64,000 bases of DNA. It comes from an uncultured Acidobacteriota bacterium (GTDB lineage Bacteria; Acidobacteriota; Polarisedimenticolia; JACPZX01). The position numbers were made by a program, and so were the translations under genes. The stretch is taken from the NCBI GenBank assembly GCA_964568735.1, contig CAZMRF010000003.1:36454-100453 (forward strand), given 5' to 3'. This document shows, piece by piece, positions 9,621 to 49,181 of the stretch. How positions within the stretch are numbered: the first letter of the stretch is position 1; the number at the start of each line of letters is the position of its first letter. The notes below the pieces were generated by a model. That model ran no database searches, was not told the DNA's origin, and saw only the letters and a list, made by a program, of their open reading frames with translations.

Positions 9621-13250
<3,630 letters not shown>

Positions 13251-13925: not shown

Positions 13926-14837
13926 TCAGCCGGTACGTCCACGATCGAATCGGTTGCGAACGTCCGTTCGTAGCCGCTCGGCAAGGGGCTCGTTCCAGCC
14001 TGAGCTTGAGTCCTCGATCACCTGCAGCTCGAGCGCGCTGAGATCACGCAGAGAGGCGAATCGAGTCTCCACGGAGGCCAGGATCTCGTCAGGTCGAACC
14101 TCTTCGGAGATCCGAATGAGACGCCGCAGATCCTCCCACTCGTAGTCGCCACTGCGGAGCTTAGAGAGAAACGCTTCGGGGTCGAATGGGTCGCGTACCT
14201 GCCAGAGCTTGAGGACGACCAGGGAGCGGAGCAGGTCGCTGTCGAACGGGGTCGTCGCGAAGCGGTGGAGGTCATACAGGTCGCGGACCTTGGCCCGTTG
14301 GAAAGCCGCCCGCACCTTCTCGGCGATCATTTCGATGGCCTCCAGCGACCGAATCTCGAAGATGTCGAACTCGAGGTGAGGAAAATAGGGTTGGTGCTCC
14401 ATCGTCCTCATCACGACTGGCAGCGTGGGGTGCTCGCGAAGGCTGACTTGCAGGCGGAAACGGCCCGCCTCGTTCCACGCATGCCGGTAAAGCACGTCCC
14501 TGCCGAAGGAAGTATCGTCCTCGGTCTTATAGTAGTCGGTGAGGGTGAACGCTATGTCATGGTGCACCCGATTGAAAACCTCGACGATCTGGACGAGTAC
14601 GTCGTCGTCCTTCTGTTCTGTCGCGAGTGTGAAGTCGAGATCTTCAGAGAAGCGTCCCGCTGAGCCGAAGATCAGTTTACGCAGGCACGTCCCCCCCTTG
14701 AATGCGAGGTATTCCATGACTCCCGAGTCGACCATGGCGCGGAGCGCGTAGGTCAGAACAACGTCCCGCTCTGCGACGAGTTTGTCGCGCAGGCCGCTGT
14801 TGCGTGCATAGAGGTCTACGTACTTGTCAGCAATCAT
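13926..14837 (-). CDS. abiEii: AbiEii/AbiGii-family nucleotidyltransferase toxin (type IV TA)
   Basis: Start at ATG 14835-14837 (MIADKYVDLYARNSGLRDK...), overlapping the antitoxin stop. Conserved 'AFKGGTCL' nucleotidyltransferase motif. About 303 aa. The track ORF extends 42 codons further upstream into the antitoxin. Confidence 0.8.
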   Translation of the reverse strand: MIADKYVDLYARNSGLRDKLVAERDVVLTYALRAMVDSGVMEYLAFKGGTCLRKLIFGSAGRFSEDLDFTLATEQKDDDVLVQIVEVFNRVHHDIAFTLTDYYKTEDDTSFGRDVLYRHAWNEAGRFRLQVSLREHPTLPVVMRTMEHQPYFPHLEFDIFEIRSLEAIEMIAEKVRAAFQRAKVRDLYDLHRFATTPFDSDLLRSLVVLKLWQVRDPFDPEAFLSKLRSGDYEWEDLRRLIRISEEVRPDEILASVETRFASLRDLSALELQVIEDSSSGWNEPLAERLRTDVRNRFDRGRTG

Positions 14838-15712
14838 CGGCGGCGTGGCTTGCCGGGGAAGACCACGCGGCGGCGGGGCTTCTCCTCTTTCGGGAGCAGC
14901 ACGCCTCTTGGGACGTTCTCCACGACGTTCCACGGTCGCACCAGGTTTCCCGTCGTGCCCCATTTGCGGCGGGAGCCGAGCTGGATCTTGCTCTGAGGGC
15001 GGACGAGCGCGAGCAGGGCCGAGCGGAAGTTTTCAGGCACCTCGGCCCGATGGAGATCGAGGAAGTAGCCCAGCCGCTGCGCGAGTGCGGAGGCTCCCCA
15101 TCTGCGCGTGAGATCGATGAGTCCATCCCACGAGATGCGGGGGGTGGCGCGCGCCACAATCCGGGAGGTCTCACCGAGGCCCCCTGCGTATCGGGGCCGA
15201 TCGATTGCGTCGAGCAAGGCCCGCTCCAGGGTTGCCATCTGGACCGGATGCCCCAGGACATTGCTCTTCCCGAATCCGAAGAAGCGGCGCCTCGGGACGT
15301 ATACGAAGACATAGCGGCGCCCCTGGATGGGTTCCGGGCGCCGCCGCTCCTGGCAGGCGACGTAGATCTCGGCAAACGTCTGCTCGGTGAGGCCGTGATG
15401 AGTGCAGGCGGTGCCGAACGAGAAGAAGTAGGGACTGACGATCAGCGCCGCCGCGGCAAGGGGGTTCGTGTCGGCTACTCCTTCCCGGCCGCGGTCGGCG
15501 GGCACGAGCTGGTAGAGCCCGGCCCGCAAGCGCTCGAACCAGCCTTTCTTCACGAGCCGATGAGCCATGCTCCGGGCGTAGCTCTCCGACGCTCCGAGGG
15601 ACTTGCTCAGCTCGGTAAGAGTGATGGTCTTCTGCCCCCGCCACTCCAGGTCGAGAACAATTTTGGCTTCGTTCCTGGAGAGGGTCCGCTCGATGGTTGC
15701 TGATTTAGCCAT
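14834..15712 (-). CDS. abiEi: AbiEi-family antitoxin/transcriptional regulator (DUF4095-type wHTH N-domain)
   Basis: About 292 aa from ATG 15710-15712 (MAKSATIERTLSRNEAKIVLDLEW...); alternative TTG at 15733. 4-bp overlap with the toxin start; the antitoxin-then-toxin order is typical of AbiE. Confidence 0.75.
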   Translation of the reverse strand: MAKSATIERTLSRNEAKIVLDLEWRGQKTITLTELSKSLGASESYARSMAHRLVKKGWFERLRAGLYQLVPADRGREGVADTNPLAAAALIVSPYFFSFGTACTHHGLTEQTFAEIYVACQERRRPEPIQGRRYVFVYVPRRRFFGFGKSNVLGHPVQMATLERALLDAIDRPRYAGGLGETSRIVARATPRISWDGLIDLTRRWGASALAQRLGYFLDLHRAEVPENFRSALLALVRPQSKIQLGSRRKWGTTGNLVRPWNVVENVPRGVLLPKEEKPRRRVVFPGKPRRR

Positions 15713-15813
15713 TTGTTTTGATTTTACTAACAAATAGCAAATCCTGCAACCTGGCGGAAACGCCCTCGAATCACCTTCTGGAATGGCCTCCAGTGTAAAA
15801 GGATGGGGGGAGG

Positions 15814-27208: not shown

Positions 27209-40111
<12,903 letters not shown>

Positions 40112-40206
40112 GTGCGGGACCTCCATGGCCGGTCGCTGAGCCCAGGCGCGAGTGCGAGGCATCGCTCCCGTTGTGGGCCCGGCATGCGGAGCGTGGTGCA
40201 AGCCGG

Positions 40207-40233
40207 ATTGTACGACCAAATGAATGCGCTCAA
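40207..40233 (-). promoter_or_regulatory. Weak candidate sigma70 promoter for the giant gene (-35 TTGAGC, 15-nt spacer, -10 TACAAT)
   Basis: Minus-strand 'TTGAGCgcattcatttggtcgTACAATcc' in an AT-richer stretch about 100 nt upstream of ATG 40111. Spacer is short. Confidence 0.2.
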
Positions 40234-41501: not shown

Positions 41502-43340
41502 GTGCGAAAACCCTTCCGCGAGATCCTGAAAGACACCATCGTCGTCTTCGACGGAGCGATGGGCACCGAGCTGTATGCTCGCGGTGTCTTCATCAACAAG
41601 TGCTACGACGAGCTGAACCTCTCCAACCCCAGGCTCGTCTCCGACGTCCACCGCGACTACAGGAAGGCCGGTGCCGACGTCCTCGAGACCAACACCTTCG
41701 GGGCCAACCGCTTCAAGCTGGGCGGGCACGGCTTCGGCGAGAAGACCGCCGAGATCAACAAGGCTGGAGCCCGGATCGCCAGGGAGATCGCCGGGGAAGA
41801 CCTCTACGTGGCCGGCTCCGTCGGCCCCCTGGGGCTCAAGATCGAGCCGTGGGGGCCGACGTCGATCCAGGAGGCGAGGGCGGCCTTCTCTGAGCAGGTC
41901 CAGGCGCTGGTCGAAGGCGGTGTGGACCTGATCTCGATCGAGACGATCTCGGATCTCAGCGAGATGCACCAGGCGATCCTCGCCGTCCAGGATCACTGCG
42001 ACCTGCCCATCGTGGCGCAGATGACGGTGGACGAGGACGGCCTGAGCCTCTACGGAACGGAGCCCGAGGTCTTCACCGCGAGGATCGACGAGTGGGGTGC
42101 CGACATGATCGGCGTCAACTGCTCGGTGGGGCCGCACGCGATCCTGGGCGCCCTCGAGCGGGTCGCGCGAGCCACCGAGAAGCCGCTCATCGTCCAGCCC
42201 AACGCAGGGACGCCGCGCAACGTCGACGGCCGCAACATCTACCTGTGCTCGCCCGAGTACATGGGCAGCTACGCCCGCCGCTTCATCCTCGCGGGAGCCA
42301 AGGCGGTCGGAGGCTGCTGCGGGACGACCCCCGATCACATCCGGCACATCGTGAAGTCGGTCCGGATGTTGCGGCCGGCGCAGCGCCACGTCGCCATCTT
42401 CGTGCCCAAGGACGAGAGCCAGGGCGTCGAGCCGGTGGTCCTGCGCGAGAAGTCGAACCTCGCCCGCAAGATCGTCGATGGCGAGTTCGTCACCTCCGTG
42501 GAGCTGCTCCCACCGAAGGGCATCTCGTCGGCCAAGGTCCTCGAGGCGGGCTGCCTCCTCAAGCAGAAGGGCGTCGACGCCGTCAACATCCCCGACGGCG
42601 CGCGCGCCACCGCCCGGATGGGCGCGATGTTCCTTGCGCTCCAGATGGTGCGCGAGGCCGGGATCGAGCCGATCCTCCACTACTGCTGCCGCGACCGGAA
42701 CCTGATCGGGATGCAGGGCGATCTCCTCGGCCTCTACGCCAGCGGGCTGCGCAACATCCTGATCATCACCGGCGATCCCCCCAAGCTGGGAGACTACCCC
42801 GACGCGACGGCGGTCTTCGACGTGGATGCCATCGGGCTGACCAACATGGTCACGCGCCTCAACCACGGGCTCGACCTCGGGGGCACGCCCATCGGGAAGC
42901 CCACCGGGTACTTCGTGGGTGTCGGGGCCAACCCCGGCGCGATGGACATCGCCTACGAGCTGAAGCGCTTCCGCTACAAGGTCGAGGCCGGGGCGGAGTT
43001 CGCCGTCACCCAGCCCGTCTTCGACGTCGAGCAGATCAAGAGCTTCCTCGAGGCCGTGCGCGGCCACAGGATCCCGGTCATCGCCGGCATCTGGCCCCTG
43101 GCCTCCCTGCGCAACGCCGAGTTCATGCGCAACGAGGTCCCCGGCGTCGTCGTGCCCGACCACGTCATGGAACGGATGCGGAAGGCCGACGCCGAGGGGA
43201 AGGGAAAGGAGGAGGGCGGCCTCATCGCTCGAGAGACCCTCGAGGAGCTGAGGCCCCTGATCCAGGGAGTGCAGGTCTCCGCCCCCTTCGGGAAGGTCCA
43301 GGGCGCCCTCGACGTCCTCAAGGTCGTCGGGATCGGCTAG
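41502..43340 (+). CDS. Bifunctional homocysteine S-methyltransferase (MetH N-domain-like) / 5,10-methylenetetrahydrofolate reductase (MetF) fusion
   Basis: N-half 'VFDGAMGTELY...GADVLETNTFGAN...GVNCSVGP' (Hcy-binding pterin-like barrel, Zn Cys ligands in 'GGCCGTTP'). C-half 'SVELLPPKG...MVTRLNHGLDLGG...AVTQPVFD' of the MTHFR family. Confidence 0.85.
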   Translation: MRKPFREILKDTIVVFDGAMGTELYARGVFINKCYDELNLSNPRLVSDVHRDYRKAGADVLETNTFGANRFKLGGHGFGEKTAEINKAGARIAREIAGEDLYVAGSVGPLGLKIEPWGPTSIQEARAAFSEQVQALVEGGVDLISIETISDLSEMHQAILAVQDHCDLPIVAQMTVDEDGLSLYGTEPEVFTARIDEWGADMIGVNCSVGPHAILGALERVARATEKPLIVQPNAGTPRNVDGRNIYLCSPEYMGSYARRFILAGAKAVGGCCGTTPDHIRHIVKSVRMLRPAQRHVAIFVPKDESQGVEPVVLREKSNLARKIVDGEFVTSVELLPPKGISSAKVLEAGCLLKQKGVDAVNIPDGARATARMGAMFLALQMVREAGIEPILHYCCRDRNLIGMQGDLLGLYASGLRNILIITGDPPKLGDYPDATAVFDVDAIGLTNMVTRLNHGLDLGGTPIGKPTGYFVGVGANPGAMDIAYELKRFRYKVEAGAEFAVTQPVFDVEQIKSFLEAVRGHRIPVIAGIWPLASLRNAEFMRNEVPGVVVPDHVMERMRKADAEGKGKEEGGLIARETLEELRPLIQGVQVSAPFGKVQGALDVLKVVGIG

Positions 43341-44032: not shown

Positions 44033-44710
44033 ATGAAAAAAGGCCAGGTTTCCTTCGCCATCGCGGGCCTCATCTTCGGCTTCCTCGTGGGCTTCGTCGT
44101 GTCCCATCAGGTGTATGTGGGGAGGGGCGTCCCCGCCTTCGAGCACCCTCCGATGCCCGGCGGGATGACCGCGGGCGGGGGGCCGATGGGAGCGGGGTCG
44201 GCCGGACTCCGGGGCCAGGGTCAGGAGGGTGCGCCGGCGCCGGCGCCGGAAGGCGGGGCTCCCGACATGGCCACCATGGAGGGGGTCCAGAAGGAGATCG
44301 CCGGGCTCAAGGCGACTCTCGAGAAGGAGCCGCGGAACACCGAATCTCTCAGCCGTCTCGGGGACCTCTACTTCGACGCTGGCATGTTCGACGGGGCCAT
44401 CGGCTACTACGAGAAGGCGCTCGAGATCGAGCCGGGCAACGTCCTGGTGCGGACGGATCTGGGGACCTCTCTCCGGCGCACGGGCCACCCGGACCGGGCC
44501 ATGAAGGAGTTCGAGGCGGCCGTGCAGGCCGACCCGTCGCACTGGCGGGGCTGGTTCAACATCGGCGTCGTCGCCCTCTACGACCTCGGGCAGTACGATC
44601 GGGCCGAGGAGGCCTTCGCCAAAGTGGACGACCTGAACCCGGGCTCGATCGACATGACGGCCCTTCAGACGGAGATCAAGCGCGTGCGGGCCGAAGGAGC
44701 CGGCGGATGA
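44033..44710 (+). CDS. Membrane-anchored TPR-repeat protein (N-terminal TM, Gly/Pro/Ala-rich linker, 3-4 TPRs)
   Basis: MKKGQVSFAIAGLIFGFLVGFVV TM helix. TPR motifs 'LGDLYFDAGMFDGAIGYYEKALEIEPGN...'. Stop overlaps the aldolase start (ATGA). Confidence 0.7.
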   Translation: MKKGQVSFAIAGLIFGFLVGFVVSHQVYVGRGVPAFEHPPMPGGMTAGGGPMGAGSAGLRGQGQEGAPAPAPEGGAPDMATMEGVQKEIAGLKATLEKEPRNTESLSRLGDLYFDAGMFDGAIGYYEKALEIEPGNVLVRTDLGTSLRRTGHPDRAMKEFEAAVQADPSHWRGWFNIGVVALYDLGQYDRAEEAFAKVDDLNPGSIDMTALQTEIKRVRAEGAGG

Positions 44711-45492
44711 CCTCGCGCTCCGAGCACCAGCTCCGCAAGGACATCTGCGAGGTCGGCCGCCGCATGTACCAGAAGGGGTTCATCGCAGCCAACGACGGCA
44801 ACATCTCGGCGCGCATGGACAACGGCAACGTGCTCCTCACGCCCTCGGCGACGAACAAGGGACGGCTCGACGAGGAGGACCTGGTCGTCACCGACATGCA
44901 TGGAGTCCGCCTCTACGGCCGGAAGGAGCCCTCCAGCGAGCTTCCGATGCACCTCGTCGTCTACAGGGAGCGGCCCGACGTGAGGGCCGTCGTGCACGCC
45001 CACCCGCCCTACGCCACGGGATTCTCGGTGGCGGGAGTTCCACTCGACAAGCCTCTCATCTCCGAGGTCGTGCTCACGCTGGGCACCGTCCCGCTCGCGG
45101 AGTACGGAACGCCGACGACGCCGGAGCTCGCGGAGGCGATCGAGCCCTACGTGCGCGAGCACGACGCGATCCTGATGGCGAACCACGGCGCGATGACTTC
45201 GGGCCCCGATCTCTTCACGGCCTACGACCGGATGGAGACGCTGGACCATTTCGCGCACATCTGGCTCGTGGCCCGCATCATGGGCACGGAGCGATCGCTC
45301 TCCGCGGAAAACGTTGCCAAGCTCAAGGCTATCCGCGAGCGGACGCACTTCGAGCCGCCTGTGGATGCCTGCTTCACCTGTCCCATTCTCGATGAGAAGA
45401 TGAAGTCGGCCGGCGGCGGGAAGATCCAGCTCACGCGCGAGCAGCTCGTCGACCTCGTCGCCGACGTGGTCAGGGGCCTGGACGTTGCCTGA
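44707..45492 (+). CDS. Class II aldolase/adducin-family protein (L-fuculose-/rhamnulose-phosphate aldolase-like) with a C-terminal encapsulation-peptide-like extension
   Basis: '[18 protein letters not shown]', '[11 protein letters not shown]', 'ANHGAMTSG' (Zn-binding His of class II aldolases). About 45-aa C-terminal extension '[29 protein letters not shown]' (flexible linker plus amphipathic helix). The 654-aa track ORF 43528..45492 is an artefact. Confidence 0.85.
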
Positions 45493-45524
45493 GGATCCTC
45501 ATGAAGGATAAGGAAGGAGCCGTA

Positions 45525-45809
45525 ATGGGCGAAGCGCTGGGTATGGTGGAGACCCGCGGCCTCGTGGCGATGATCGAGGCCGCGGACGCGATGGTGAAGG
45601 CGGCGAAGGTCACCCTGGTCGGCTACGAGAAGATCGGGTCGGGCCTCGTAACGGTCCTGGTCCGGGGCGACGTCGCGGCGTGCAAGGCCGCGACGGACGC
45701 CGGCGCGGCCGCGGCTCGCAAGGTCGGAGAGCTCGTCTCCGTCCACGTGATCCCGAGGCCTCACGCCAGCCTCGAGGACAGGCTTCCCATCGGGAAGACC
45801 GCGAGGTAG
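45525..45809 (+). CDS. Bacterial microcompartment hexamer shell protein (BMC-H; PduA/EutM/CcmK family)
   Basis: [80 protein letters not shown], very similar to PduA. GGAAGGAG RBS 6 nt upstream of ATG 45525 (the track ORF starts at 45501). Confidence 0.9.
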
Positions 45810-45845: not shown

Positions 45846-46136
45846 ATGTTTCTGGCCCGGGTTGTCGGAACGGTCGTCGCCACGCGGAAGGACGACCGCC
45901 TCGAAGGGTGCAAGCTGCTGGTCGTCCAGCCTGTCGACGAGACGGGCAAGGACGAGGGGCGGTGCGTGGTTGCTGTGGACACGGTCTCGGCCGGCAACCG
46001 CGAGGTGGTCCTCGTCGTCAGCGGATCTTCGGCGCGCATGACCACGCGCACGAAAGACTCCCCGGTGGATGCCGCCATCGTGGGCATCGTGGACACCGTC
46101 GCGATCGACGATGCGGCTCCATGGGGCACGCCGTGA
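45846..46136 (+). CDS. BMC vertex pentamer protein (BMC-P; EutN/CcmL/PduN family), paralog 1
   Basis: MFLARVVGTVVATRKDDRLEGCKLLVVQP...VVAVDTVSAGNREVVLVVSGSSAR...AIVGIVD, canonical EutN/CcmL fold signature. Confidence 0.85.
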   Translation: MFLARVVGTVVATRKDDRLEGCKLLVVQPVDETGKDEGRCVVAVDTVSAGNREVVLVVSGSSARMTTRTKDSPVDAAIVGIVDTVAIDDAAPWGTP

Positions 46137-46429
46137 ACCTCGGCCGCGTCGTGGGCCGCGTCGTCTCCAGTCATAAAGATGCCGGCCTGACCGGCCGGAA
46201 GATCCTGATCATCCAGCCGCTCGGCGCGGATCTCTCCGCGCGGGGGTCGACCATCGTCGCCGCCGACGCGGTGGGGGCCGGGGCGGGTGAGACGGTCATC
46301 TGGGTGCGGGGCCGCGAGGCCGCCCATGCCTTCCTGCCCGACGAGGTGCCTGTGGATGCGGGCGTCGTCGGGATCGTGGACGAGGCCTACGTGGACGAGA
46401 GCGCAGGCAGGCGGAGCCCATCGCGGTGA
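46133..46429 (+). CDS. BMC-P vertex protein, paralog 2
   Basis: (V/M)NLGRVVGRVVSSHKDAGLTGRKILIIQP...IVAADAVGAGAGETVIWVRGREAA...GVVGIVD. GTG 46133 overlaps the paralog-1 stop (GTGA); an alternative ATG at 46121 would add MGHA. Confidence 0.8.
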   Translation: MNLGRVVGRVVSSHKDAGLTGRKILIIQPLGADLSARGSTIVAADAVGAGAGETVIWVRGREAAHAFLPDEVPVDAGVVGIVDEAYVDESAGRRSPSR

Positions 46430-46716
46430 TCCTCGCACGGGTCATCGGCAACGTCGTCGCCACCAGGAAGCACGACGCCTTCCACTCCTTCAAGCTCATG
46501 CTCGTGCGCCCCGTGGGTGTTGACGGCGGCGACGCCGGCGACGAGTTCATGGCGGCGGACGGCGTGGGGGCCGGGCCCGGGGAGACGGTCCTCGTCGTGG
46601 TGGAGGGGCGGTCGGCGGGCCAGGCCCTCCGCAAGGAGCGGGCGCCGCTCGATGCCGCCATCGTCGGGATTGTCGATCGGATCGACTGCGACACCCAGGA
46701 GCATCGCCGGCCATGA
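46426..46716 (+). CDS. BMC-P vertex protein, paralog 3
   Basis: (V/M)ILARVIGNVVATRKHDAFHSFKLMLVRP...FMAADGVGAGPGETVLVVVEGRSAGQ...AIVGIVD. GTG start overlapping the previous stop (GTGA). Confidence 0.85.
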   Translation: MILARVIGNVVATRKHDAFHSFKLMLVRPVGVDGGDAGDEFMAADGVGAGPGETVLVVVEGRSAGQALRKERAPLDAAIVGIVDRIDCDTQEHRRP

Positions 46717-46752: not shown

Positions 46753-47097
46753 ATGAGAATGAAGCTCGGCACGTTGCCTGACGGGCGCAGGCCGCCAGGT
46801 GCCGGGGAGCTCATCCCCCCCGGCTGGGTCGGCCTCCCCGCGGACGGGAAGGAGGCCGCCGGCGCCGCGCGCCGCGAGGAGCCCGCCGCCGGGGCTGCGC
46901 GCGATCGGATCGCGCGGGCGCTCGGGGAGGCGCTGGCGCCCGGCGTCATGCCGGCGCGCTCCGTGATAGCTTCGATCGACTCCGCCGTGCGCGAGCACGT
47001 GAGCCCCATCACTCCATGGGGTGAGCGCTCTGCCTGCATCATCGAGCCCGGCAAGCCCTGCCGCGGAAGCGGGCGCTGCCGGGAAAGAGGGTACTGA
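46753..47097 (+). CDS. Hypothetical small protein (114 aa) between the BMC-P genes and the large TPR gene
   Basis: ORF only. Pro/Ala/Arg-rich N-half and a Cys-containing tail (ACIIEPGKPCRGSGRC). Codon usage is weakly protein-like. Stop is 6 nt before the next ATG. Confidence 0.3.
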   Translation: MRMKLGTLPDGRRPPGAGELIPPGWVGLPADGKEAAGAARREEPAAGAARDRIARALGEALAPGVMPARSVIASIDSAVREHVSPITPWGERSACIIEPGKPCRGSGRCRERGY

Positions 47098-47102
47098 CGA
47101 GG

Positions 47103-49181
47103 ATGGACGACAAGCGAATCCAGAGTCTCCTGGAGCTGGCGGGATCCGAGTACAACCAGGGGAAGTACGCCGAGGCCATCGAGCACTGGCAGGAGATCCT
47201 GAGCCTGGATCCCGAGAACCAGAAGGCCCGCGAGGGGATTCGCATGGCGAAGCTCCTCGTCGTGAACTGGGAGTCGTCCCAGGCCGGCGGGGAGGAGCTG
47301 ATGCTCGATACCGGGGGCGTCGACCCGGAGACGCAGCAGAAGATCGAGTTCGGGATCGCGCGCGTCAGGGAGCTCCTGACCTCGGGACGCCACAAGGAGG
47401 CGATGGAAGGCTGCCAGCTCCTCGCCGAGCTCGCGCCGGGGATGCCCTCCGTCACTCAGCTCCAGGAGGAGATTGCCCACGCGATCGAGGTGCAGCCCTA
47501 CATCGGGGAGCATCTCGGGCGGGCGCGCAAGCTGATCGCCGCCGGCAAGGGAGGCGAGGCCGTAGAGGAGGCCCGGAAGGTCCTCTCGGTGGATCCAGGA
47601 AACCCCGAGGCGCAGGGCATCGTCAGCAAGGGGCGCGGAACGGCTGCGCCCGGGGCGAGCCCCTCCGCCTTCGACAAGGAGGGCCATCCCGCGCCGCCTT
47701 CACCCTTCGCGGGGAGCAGCAAGGCCGACGAGATGATGGCGAGCATGGACCTCGGGCAGCACGGGGGAGGGCGCGCAGGCGACGCGGCCGGCGAGGAATC
47801 GCCCATCGAGATGGAGTTCGAGGAGGTCAGCTCGCACGCCCCCTCGCCGGGAGCCGGGAGCGACGGAAAGGTGGCCCGCATGCTGGAGCAGGGGCGCGGG
47901 CTCTTCGCCCAGAAGAAGTACCAGGAGGCCATCGATGTCTGGTCGCGGGTCTTCACCCTCGACGAATCGAACGTCGAGGCGGGCAACCTGATCGACCAGG
48001 CCAATGCCCGCATCGCCGAGATCGTCAGCAAGGTCGAGGACGCGATGTACCGGGCGCAGGACCAGGTCGATGCCGGGAATCTGGCGGGCGCCAAGAAAGT
48101 CTTCGAGGAGGTTCTCTCCATCCAGCCCGGGAACCGGGAAGCCCTCGACAGGATCGCGAAGATCGACGAGCAGCTCTCGGGGCCCGACCTCGGCGAGGCC
48201 ATCCCGATGGCGGCCAGCCAGCCGGGGACGGGCGCGGAGGCCGCGCCGGAGGCCGGAGCCGGAGAACGAGCCGGCAAGTCCCAGTCCTCGGAGGCTTTCC
48301 GTGCGGCTCCCGGAATTCGAGCCGCCTCACCGCAGCGAGCCGCCTCGTCGTCGGGCGCGGCGGGGATCTTCAAGAAGAAGCCCGTCGTCCCCATACCGCC
48401 TGCGGGCGGGTCGGGCCGCACCGCCGTCGTCTCAGCGCTCGTGGTGATCGTCCTCGGTGGAGCGGCGGCCGGCTGGTGGTTCCTCATGGGCACGGGAGCG
48501 GAGGCGCCTGAAGAGATCGGGCCGCCACCCGAAGCCTCGGCCGGGCTGCCTGGGGCCACGCCGACCACCAAGGAACCCGAAAAGCCGGGCTCCGCCGCCG
48601 GCCCCGGATCGGCCGAGGCAGGAGTCGCGCCGCAGCAGAAGCAGCCGGCCCAGCCCGCCGATCCTGCCGCCGTGCAGAAACAGATCGCCTCCTTGATGAG
48701 AGAGGGGAGAGATCTCCTGGGGCAGAAGCAGTACACCGAGGCACATTCCCGCTTCAAGGAGGTTCTCGCTCTCGATGTCTCCAACTTCGACGCGGAAGAG
48801 CTGCGGCTGAAGGCCTCGGCGGGAATGGCCGAGGAGGCCCGCTTCAACAAGGATCTCGAGTCGGCCAGGGCCGCCTTCGAGGATCAGGACTGGGCTTCGT
48901 CGCTCTACAAGCTCTACAGGCTGCAGCAGGAGCGCGAGGACATGACCATCCTCAAGCGCTACATCGCGAATGCGAACCACAACTGGGGTGTGCAGGATCT
49001 GGAGGCGTTCCGCCTGACGGAAGCGCTCGAGCACTTCCAGGACGCTCTGGAGCAGCTTCCTGACGACCGGGCGACCCAGCAACACATCAACGTCGTGCAG
49101 CGCTACGAGAAGCGCCGGCGCGATCCCGCCTTCGACGCCTACATCGCCAAGCTGAAGCTGAGGGCCCTCGACGCGCGCTGA
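47103..49181 (+). CDS. Large TPR-repeat protein with a central transmembrane helix (692 aa)
   Basis: N-terminal TPRs (YNQGKYAEAIEHWQEILSLDPEN...), an acidic/Pro-Ala-rich low-complexity region, a TM segment 'TAVVSALVVIVLGGAAAGWWFLMG', then C-terminal TPR/coiled-coil repeats. AGGATGG start context. Confidence 0.7.
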   Translation: MDDKRIQSLLELAGSEYNQGKYAEAIEHWQEILSLDPENQKAREGIRMAKLLVVNWESSQAGGEELMLDTGGVDPETQQKIEFGIARVRELLTSGRHKEAMEGCQLLAELAPGMPSVTQLQEEIAHAIEVQPYIGEHLGRARKLIAAGKGGEAVEEARKVLSVDPGNPEAQGIVSKGRGTAAPGASPSAFDKEGHPAPPSPFAGSSKADEMMASMDLGQHGGGRAGDAAGEESPIEMEFEEVSSHAPSPGAGSDGKVARMLEQGRGLFAQKKYQEAIDVWSRVFTLDESNVEAGNLIDQANARIAEIVSKVEDAMYRAQDQVDAGNLAGAKKVFEEVLSIQPGNREALDRIAKIDEQLSGPDLGEAIPMAASQPGTGAEAAPEAGAGERAGKSQSSEAFRAAPGIRAASPQRAASSSGAAGIFKKKPVVPIPPAGGSGRTAVVSALVVIVLGGAAAGWWFLMGTGAEAPEEIGPPPEASAGLPGATPTTKEPEKPGSAAGPGSAEAGVAPQQKQPAQPADPAAVQKQIASLMREGRDLLGQKQYTEAHSRFKEVLALDVSNFDAEELRLKASAGMAEEARFNKDLESARAAFEDQDWASSLYKLYRLQQEREDMTILKRYIANANHNWGVQDLEAFRLTEALEHFQDALEQLPDDRATQQHINVVQRYEKRRRDPAFDAYIAKLKLRALDAR

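Follow-up and report, generated by a model that had tools for sequence, protein, structure and literature searches.

What does the C-terminal tail of a class II aldolase do when the genes next to it encode the shell of a bacterial microcompartment (BMC)? The question is raised by a 64-kb stretch of contig CAZMRF010000003.1 (the window, meaning the whole stretch of DNA analysed here), in which an open reading frame (ORF) for a class II aldolase of 261 amino acids (44707..45492, + strand) stands directly upstream of shell genes. The interval 45397..45489, in which a first, sequence-only reading had seen a linker and an amphipathic helix resembling an encapsulation peptide (EP), lies in frame and corresponds to residues 231-261 of this enzyme. 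On the basis of sequence comparison and structure prediction, we estimate at about 80% the probability that the C-terminal ~22 residues of the aldolase are an EP with a targeting or assembly role for the microcompartment encoded downstream. The parts of the gene on which the argument turns are the following.

44707..45342, + strand: catalytic core of the aldolase, FucA-like and Zn-dependent (residues 1-212; from PF00596, alignment to Protein Data Bank (PDB) chains and the AlphaFold2 model)
45343..45423, + strand: linker (residues 213-239), a conserved C-x-x-C segment, then a variable stretch rich in Gly, Ala and Ser, with KSAGGGK at residues 233-239
45370..45381, + strand: the C-x-x-C motif (CFTC) within the linker (residues 222-225)
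45424..45489, + strand: predicted EP (residues 240-261), its helix (residues 244-259) occupying nucleotides 45436..45483

Where does the enzyme end and the extension begin? Translation most plausibly begins with the ATG at 44707, within an ATGA overlap with the stop of the preceding gene, and the stop codon lies at 45490..45492; the ORF length is conserved, and independent assemblies carry the same gene call. Residues 12-187 match the Pfam family Aldolase_II (PF00596, E=6e-50). The acid/base glutamate E78 and the three histidines of the metal site (H97, H99 and H160) are invariant across 79 homologs and are the same residues as in the solved FucA-type chain 6btd_A; with the Pfam domain, the glutamate and the three histidines of the class II fold all in place, the core looks catalytically competent, as far as its sequence can tell. 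Every NCBIfam equivalog score of the window aldolase falls under its cut-off, that for L-fuculose-1-phosphate specificity included (best scores against cut-offs, in bits: 145 versus 250 for OtnC, the 3-oxo-tetronate-4-phosphate decarboxylase, and 122 versus 264 for FucA, PRK06833), so that the substrate is not assignable and a FucA specificity is not established. Against all PDB chains, a sequence search aligned FucA-type chains of 207-222 amino acids from query residue 4 to residues 188-206, where the alignments stop, and NCBIfam profiles for class II aldolases, epimerases and decarboxylases had ceased to match by about residue 207 in all 25 cases among the matches listed. Because both kinds of alignment stop before residue 213, residues 213-261 constitute an add-on of ~48 amino acids, close to the ~45 that the sequence-only reading had counted. 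Escherichia coli FucA (PDB 1FUA) and its solved relatives share the catalytic fold and the Zn-site residues with the window aldolase, whereas FucA-type chains, at 207-222 amino acids, have neither a Cys-containing linker nor a terminal amphipathic helix.

Is the add-on a helix on a tether? An AlphaFold2 model built on a 79-sequence alignment (mean predicted local distance difference test score, pLDDT, 88.6) places the core, residues 1-213, at pLDDT >90 and drops below 50 at residues 217-226 and 234-239, the second of which takes in the Gly-rich SAGGGK; between the two the model has a weak helix, at 226-234. The linker had been described as flexible and marked by KSAGGGK, a description that holds for its distal part, but the core-proximal segment (217-232) is not featureless, since it carries the conserved C-x-x-C. 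Beyond the linker, a C-terminal helix is predicted at residues 244-259 of 261, with mean pLDDT of 81 and 74 for the ten-residue blocks 241-250 and 251-260, respectively. The helix itself is somewhat shorter than originally proposed, 16 residues instead of about 18, but its amphipathic character stands: residues 245-258 have an Eisenberg helical hydrophobic moment of 0.67, the second highest of any 14-residue window of the aldolase. The features by which EPs have been recognised (Kinney 2012; Aussignargues 2015), a short terminal predicted helix, its amphipathicity and a poorly conserved flexible linker, are all found here, even though the core-proximal C-x-x-C part of the linker is conserved.

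The evidence that excludes chance comes from conservation. Among the best 120 database homologs (46-100% identity), all full-length sequences end in [IVY]-x-L-T-[RKY]-x-[EQ]-L-x-x-L-[IV]-x-[DE]-x-V-[KR]-x-L. Column statistics over 79 of these homologs (49-85% identity) show that positions 240, 242, 247, 248, 250, 251, 254, 255 and 258, which follow helical spacing, are hydrophobic in 72-100% of sequences, with L247 present in 100%, L250 in 96% and T243 in 96%. In the same homologs, between 11 and 41 amino acids align with query residues 226-241. A hydrophobic face that is kept while the length of the linker drifts bears the signature of an amphipathic helix that functions on a variable tether. 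That the pattern arose by chance in a loosely constrained C-terminus, or from a mis-called stop codon, is accordingly a suggestion to which we assign a near-zero probability: in its favour, shuffling of the single sequence gives nothing better than p=0.03 (14 residues) and p=0.20 (18 residues), but the motif recurs with its invariant leucine down to 46% identity, which rules out a chance helix, and the conserved ORF length and identical gene calls leave little room for an erroneous stop.

Is there a shell for this tail to reach? The sequence-only reading had placed one directly downstream, and it is there: one BMC-H gene and three BMC-P genes on the same strand.

45525..45809, + strand: BMC-H shell hexamer protein (PF00936, E=1.5e-30; PRPH motif; alternative start at 45501)
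45846..46136, + strand: BMC-P pentamer (vertex) protein 1 (PF03319, E=3.9e-32)
46121..46429, + strand: BMC-P pentamer protein 2 (PF03319, E=1.1e-25; alternative GTG start at 46133)
46426..46716, + strand: BMC-P pentamer protein 3, which completes the triplet (PF03319, E=1.4e-27)

The BMC-H gene is preceded by a Shine-Dalgarno-like AAGGAAGGAG, and its product exceeds the NCBIfam cut-off for EutM (147.5 bits versus 133). The aldolase, the BMC-H gene and the three BMC-P genes are all encoded on the + strand with spacers or overlaps of at most 36 nucleotides, an arrangement from which they apparently form a single operon.

Do tails and shells travel together in other genomes? [quoted passage not shown] Long tails occur in 32 of the 34 shell-adjacent aldolases versus 29 of the 45 others (Fisher p=0.002). 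Where each flank measures 8 kb or more, the fractions become 18/18 and 11/21 (Fisher p=6e-4), and none of the ten short-tailed aldolases with such flanks is shell-adjacent. Among Acidobacteriota-type relatives, all 12 fetched loci (L003-L009, L013 and L083-L086) consist of the aldolase, BMC-H and then one to three BMC-P genes. Tail length was adopted as the measure because the alternative that we tried, an EP call by hydrophobic moment of at least 0.5, mislabels the clearly motif-bearing tails of L005-L008 (moments of 0.34-0.48) and was rejected; with that cut-off, the tail-shell association reaches only Fisher p=0.048. The only shell-adjacent aldolases without an extension are two from Caldithrix (L072, aldolase ORF 9803..10672, and L082, 4912..5610), which are short-tailed, have no EP and lie 250-450 bp downstream of four tandem BMC-P genes.

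What would the tail then do? By analogy with PduP, PduD, EutC and CcmN, an amphipathic helix on a flexible tether would recruit the aldolase into the lumen of a shell made of BMC-H and BMC-P1-3, its hydrophobic face (L247, V248, L250, V251, V254, V255 and L258) either docking on the lumenal side of the shell hexamers or bundling with other EPs. FucA-family enzymes are homotetramers. With four tags displayed on each particle, the cargo would be driven to co-assemble multivalently, before the shell closes or as it does so, into a core that the shell then encloses. Once enclosed, the enzyme would cleave a sugar phosphate to dihydroxyacetone phosphate and an aldehyde; the aldehyde would be consumed by an aldehyde dehydrogenase that has an EP of its own and whose gene would lie in another part of the genome.

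This interpretation has close precedents. Aussignargues et al. (2015) aligned 23 BMC-associated class II aldolases with 12 others and found a C-terminal EP of about 17 amino acids on 21 of the 23 BMC-associated enzymes and not on the non-BMC ones; the linkers of these EPs were 23-81 amino acids long, contained 5.5% Cys and were described as 'without conservation' (PMC4594438). The aldolases of that study, from PVM, PVM-like and GRM5 loci, share with the window aldolase the amphipathic helix (12-17 amino acids) at the extreme C-terminus, the linker and the high Cys content of the linker (PMC4594438); the window linker differs in lying at the short end of the range (~27 amino acids) and in the conservation of its core-proximal half. 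The EPs of PduP, PduD and EutC, which are N-terminal, and of CcmN, which is C-terminal, consist of the same kind of amphipathic helix of ~15-20 residues on a flexible tether (PMC4594438), but they sit on other enzymes, mostly at the opposite terminus, and have no sequence homology to the tail described here; targeting was demonstrated experimentally for those proteins, and for the window aldolase it is a prediction. The architecture of an EP, and with it the role of the aldolase as shell cargo, is supported by the terminal helix, the variable linker, the absence of both from FucA-type non-BMC enzymes, their presence in shell-adjacent homologs and the shell genes that follow the aldolase on its own strand.

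Several observations count against assigning the tail to the microcompartment. The amphipathicity of the single sequence is only modest evidence, since shuffled versions of the last 22 residues reach a moment of 0.67 in 3% of trials (14-residue window, p=0.03) and the test is non-significant with an 18-residue window (p=0.20). The polar positions of the helix (T243, E/Q246, D/E253 and R/K256) are conserved beyond what would be expected of a generic EP; from the alignment, this could point to a more specific partner. The 29 long-tailed homologs with no shell gene within 10 kb imply that the tail is not strictly tied to an adjacent shell. A Pfam scan of the ~40 ORFs of the 64-kb window found no aldehyde dehydrogenase, phosphotransacylase or other pathway enzyme, so a functional metabolosome is not reconstructable from the window alone. 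Finally, we found no targeting experiment on any aldolase EP in the BMC literature compared.

The strongest of the competing explanations holds that the C-terminal helix serves the aldolase itself, as a self-association or regulatory element (for example, a bundle that stabilizes or gates the tetramer), and that the shell neighbourhood reflects shared ancestry only. The long amphipathic tails of those 29 of 45 homologs and the unusual conservation of the polar helix positions both fit such a role, and the C-terminal tail of E. coli FucA participates in catalysis. Set against this are the tails on every one of the 18 full-flank shell-adjacent aldolases, with no short-tailed enzyme (0/10) in that setting, and the tether, whose variable length and pLDDT below 50 argue against packing of the helix on the core. 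In addition, the tailed aldolases that have no shell gene nearby belong mainly to Ignavibacteria, Bacteroidota, Calditrichota, KSB1 and LCP-89, phyla reported to have scattered shell genes of the FRAG type, Caldithrix abyssi being an example (PMC8217296). In the 2021 catalogue of Sutter et al., FRAG-type phyla have their shell genes spread over up to six loci, and C. abyssi LF13 is listed with 'fragmented' shell genes (PMC8217296); the C. abyssi locus in our set, from a metagenome-assembled genome (MAG; L047), has a tailed aldolase and no shell gene within 10 kb. Indirectly, from taxonomy and this one species, the evidence leans against the view that the tail is kept in genomes that lack shells. 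Taken together, we regard a role in self-association or regulation of the aldolase alone as improbable, with a probability of about one in ten. A Cys-rich linker together with an amphipathic C-terminal helix, and no shell gene within 10 kb, was observed in L010-L012, L015, L017-L019, L022, L025, L027, L042, L047, L054, L066, L068, L071 and L076.

A second competing explanation, to which we give still less credence, takes the extension to be a Cys-based metal-binding or redox module built on the C-x-x-C, with the terminal helix as a part of it. The Cys pair is indeed well kept (C222 in 87% and C225 in 91% of the 79 homologs), other aldolase clades have three to five Cys in the same region, and published aldolase linkers are likewise rich in Cys (5.5%; PMC4594438). 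The Sporomusa homologs L056, L059, L074 and L075 have a Cys cluster with neither an amphipathic helix nor nearby shell genes. However, a variable insert that is predicted to be disordered separates the Cys segment from the helix, some tailed homologs have a single Cys or none (L005-L008 and L060), and conservation is strongest in the helix (L247, 100%), not in the Cys pair. The alignment suggests that the linker C-x-x-C is a separate metal or redox feature, one that is undiscussed in the EP literature compared, and the Cys pair and the EP helix may simply coexist.

If the tail is an EP, to which kind of microcompartment would it belong? The sequence-only reading had referred to the PVM type (Erbilgin 2014; Axen 2014), whose loci in Planctomycetes and Verrucomicrobia combine an aldolase with an aldehyde dehydrogenase, a phosphotransacylase, an acetate kinase, a lactate/malate dehydrogenase-like gene and a DeoR regulator (PMC4207490). 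This proved to be the wrong subtype: in contrast to PVM loci, the window has no aldehyde dehydrogenase, phosphotransacylase, acetate kinase or DeoR regulator, and PVM membership was rejected as none of the PVM pathway genes was detected by Pfam among the ~40 ORFs. The better match is the ACI type, defined by Sutter et al. (2021) from 125 loci found only in Acidobacteria (PMC8217296). Besides one BMC-H and three adjacent BMC-P proteins, ACI loci encode a 2-hydroxyacid dehydrogenase, a pfam00596 aldolase that ends in an EP, and a short protein of ~80 amino acids that has an EP and three conserved cysteines, the aldehyde dehydrogenase residing on a satellite locus (PMC8217296). In a canonical ACI locus of our set (L084), the genes encode, in this order, a protein combining a transmembrane (TM) segment with tetratricopeptide repeats (TPRs), a protein of 80 amino acids, the aldolase, BMC-H, three BMC-P proteins, a small Cys-containing ORF and the 2-hydroxyacid dehydrogenase.

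The window agrees with the ACI type in its EP-tailed pfam00596 aldolase, its one basal BMC-H, its BMC-P triplet and its small EP-like Cys protein, and it shares with L084 the upstream TM-TPR protein and the aldolase EP motif LT(R/Y)xEL..LI. An aldehyde dehydrogenase is missing from the main locus in both, and its absence from the 64-kb window is consistent with the satellite-locus arrangement of ACI. The differences are nevertheless clear. The 2-hydroxyacid dehydrogenase (pfam00389/02826), present in L084, is absent from the ~40 ORFs of the window, and a TPR protein of ~690 amino acids stands in its stead in the window, L003, L085 and L086; the small Cys protein has 110-114 amino acids versus ~80 in ACI, with its EP-like helix internal, not N-terminal; and the closest named relatives include Candidatus Polarisedimenticolia, whereas ACI is known from Subdivisions 4 and 6. 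The closest named homologs of the window aldolase are from MAGs of Acidobacteriota and Candidatus Polarisedimenticolia. From its gene content, the locus is best called a reduced ACI-like member and not a PVM one. EPs on BMC class II aldolases (2015) and the ACI locus type (2021) are already published, and the tail of the window aldolase adds no new principle to them.

What else does this ACI-like locus encode? Three accessory genes flank the aldolase and the shell genes.

44033..44710, + strand: TPR protein with an N-terminal membrane helix, 225 amino acids (Pfam TPR families); its stop overlaps the aldolase start (ATGA)
46753..47097, + strand: small protein of 114 amino acids; EP-like helix (DRIARALGEAL), LIPPxWVGLP conserved in the N-terminal part, CIIEPGKPCRGSGRCRxRGY invariant at the C-terminus
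47103..49181, + strand: TPR-rich protein, 692 amino acids (Pfam TPR families), beginning 5 nucleotides past the 114-amino-acid ORF

The ATGA overlap indicates translational coupling between the membrane-anchored TPR protein and the aldolase, and the gene that immediately precedes the aldolase in L003, L004, L084, L085 and L086 encodes a homolog of this TPR protein; in L003, the TPR protein is fused to a TM segment and a Cys-motif domain that resembles the separate 80-amino-acid protein of L084. The ~690-amino-acid TPR protein has homologs at the same downstream position in the closest relatives (L003, L085 and L086). TPR partners are not mentioned in the published description of ACI (PMC8217296).

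The small protein, which is annotated as a gene (P0125) in the source records, has homologs with 88% identity (P0121, at the same position in L086) and 57% identity (P0122), and its three invariant cysteines lie in CIIEPGKPCRGSGRC. A phmmer search with the 114-amino-acid ORF gave no match in the fetched loci, and a strict regular expression for the Cys motif retrieved only L084 and the window. The C-terminus of the protein aligns with ACLIEPTVQCNHCGYCQSHGH of L084 over ~25 amino acids (E=4e-6 for the pair), within a small ORF that had gone uncalled (12057..12275), just after the BMC-P triplet of that canonical ACI locus; the link between the two thus rests on a short, 25-amino-acid alignment together with the shared gene position. 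From these features, the 114-amino-acid protein is a probable second cargo or accessory protein. In L085, tandem DNA repeats (12039..12338), each encoding RLKAALKAQGCPEGSGLP and then a stop, fill the spacer that separates the TPR gene from the BMC-P triplet, which is where the window has its small Cys ORF.

Two readings of the wider pattern, which do not exclude one another, can be put forward tentatively, as ideas that we consider possible but less likely than not. In the first, the window represents a distinct, reduced ACI-like subtype, whose accessory set (the coupled membrane TPR protein, the small CIIEP...C...C protein and the ~690-amino-acid TPR protein) hints at a membrane-tethered or TPR-scaffolded microcompartment. 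In the second, the EP-tailed aldolases of Ignavibacteria, Bacteroidota, Calditrichota, KSB1 and LCP-89, whose genes are remote from shell genes, would be the missing cargo of the 'fragmented' FRAG1 and FRAG3 microcompartments. According to the 2021 catalogue, searches of FRAG genomes with hidden Markov models of EPs gave nothing and some FRAG loci have no identifiable enzyme (PMC8217296); the aldolase is a possible candidate for this missing cargo.

Other features of the window and its relatives can be recorded alongside. A gene for a fused homocysteine S-methyltransferase/MTHFR (41502..43340, + strand) lies two genes upstream of the window aldolase, and a fused gene of this kind is also found upstream of EP-tailed aldolases in six loci of Ignavibacteria and Bacteroidota (L022, L025, L051, L066, L068 and L071), ending within ~150 nucleotides of the aldolase in five of the six and ~2.6 kb upstream of it in L068; the linkage of methyltransferase/MTHFR and aldolase thus recurs across phyla. 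Further away, a giant ORF of 4336 amino acids (27209..40219, - strand), Rhs/YD-repeat-like and with many Cys-rich CDGxDNDCDG repeats, is situated between a MacB-type ABC transporter and a Dam methyltransferase. Because the transporter and Dam genes are adjacent in the syntenic L086, the giant gene is taken to be an insertion in this genome. An AbiEii toxin/AbiEi antitoxin pair (type IV toxin-antitoxin; 13926..15733, - strand) adjoins a pyruvate:ferredoxin oxidoreductase gene.

What, then, does the tail mean for the organism and for this family of compartments? As an EP, it would single out the aldolase as signature cargo of a small microcompartment locus, in a lineage that is uncultured and probably acidobacterial, and it would provide a defined tag of 22 residues, reusable with a minimal four-gene shell. 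For BMC specialists, the linker C-x-x-C, the flanking TPR partners and the EP-tailed aldolases of FRAG phyla would, if confirmed, be of interest in their own right; together with the variant of the small CIIEP-Cys protein, they extend slightly beyond the literature compared.

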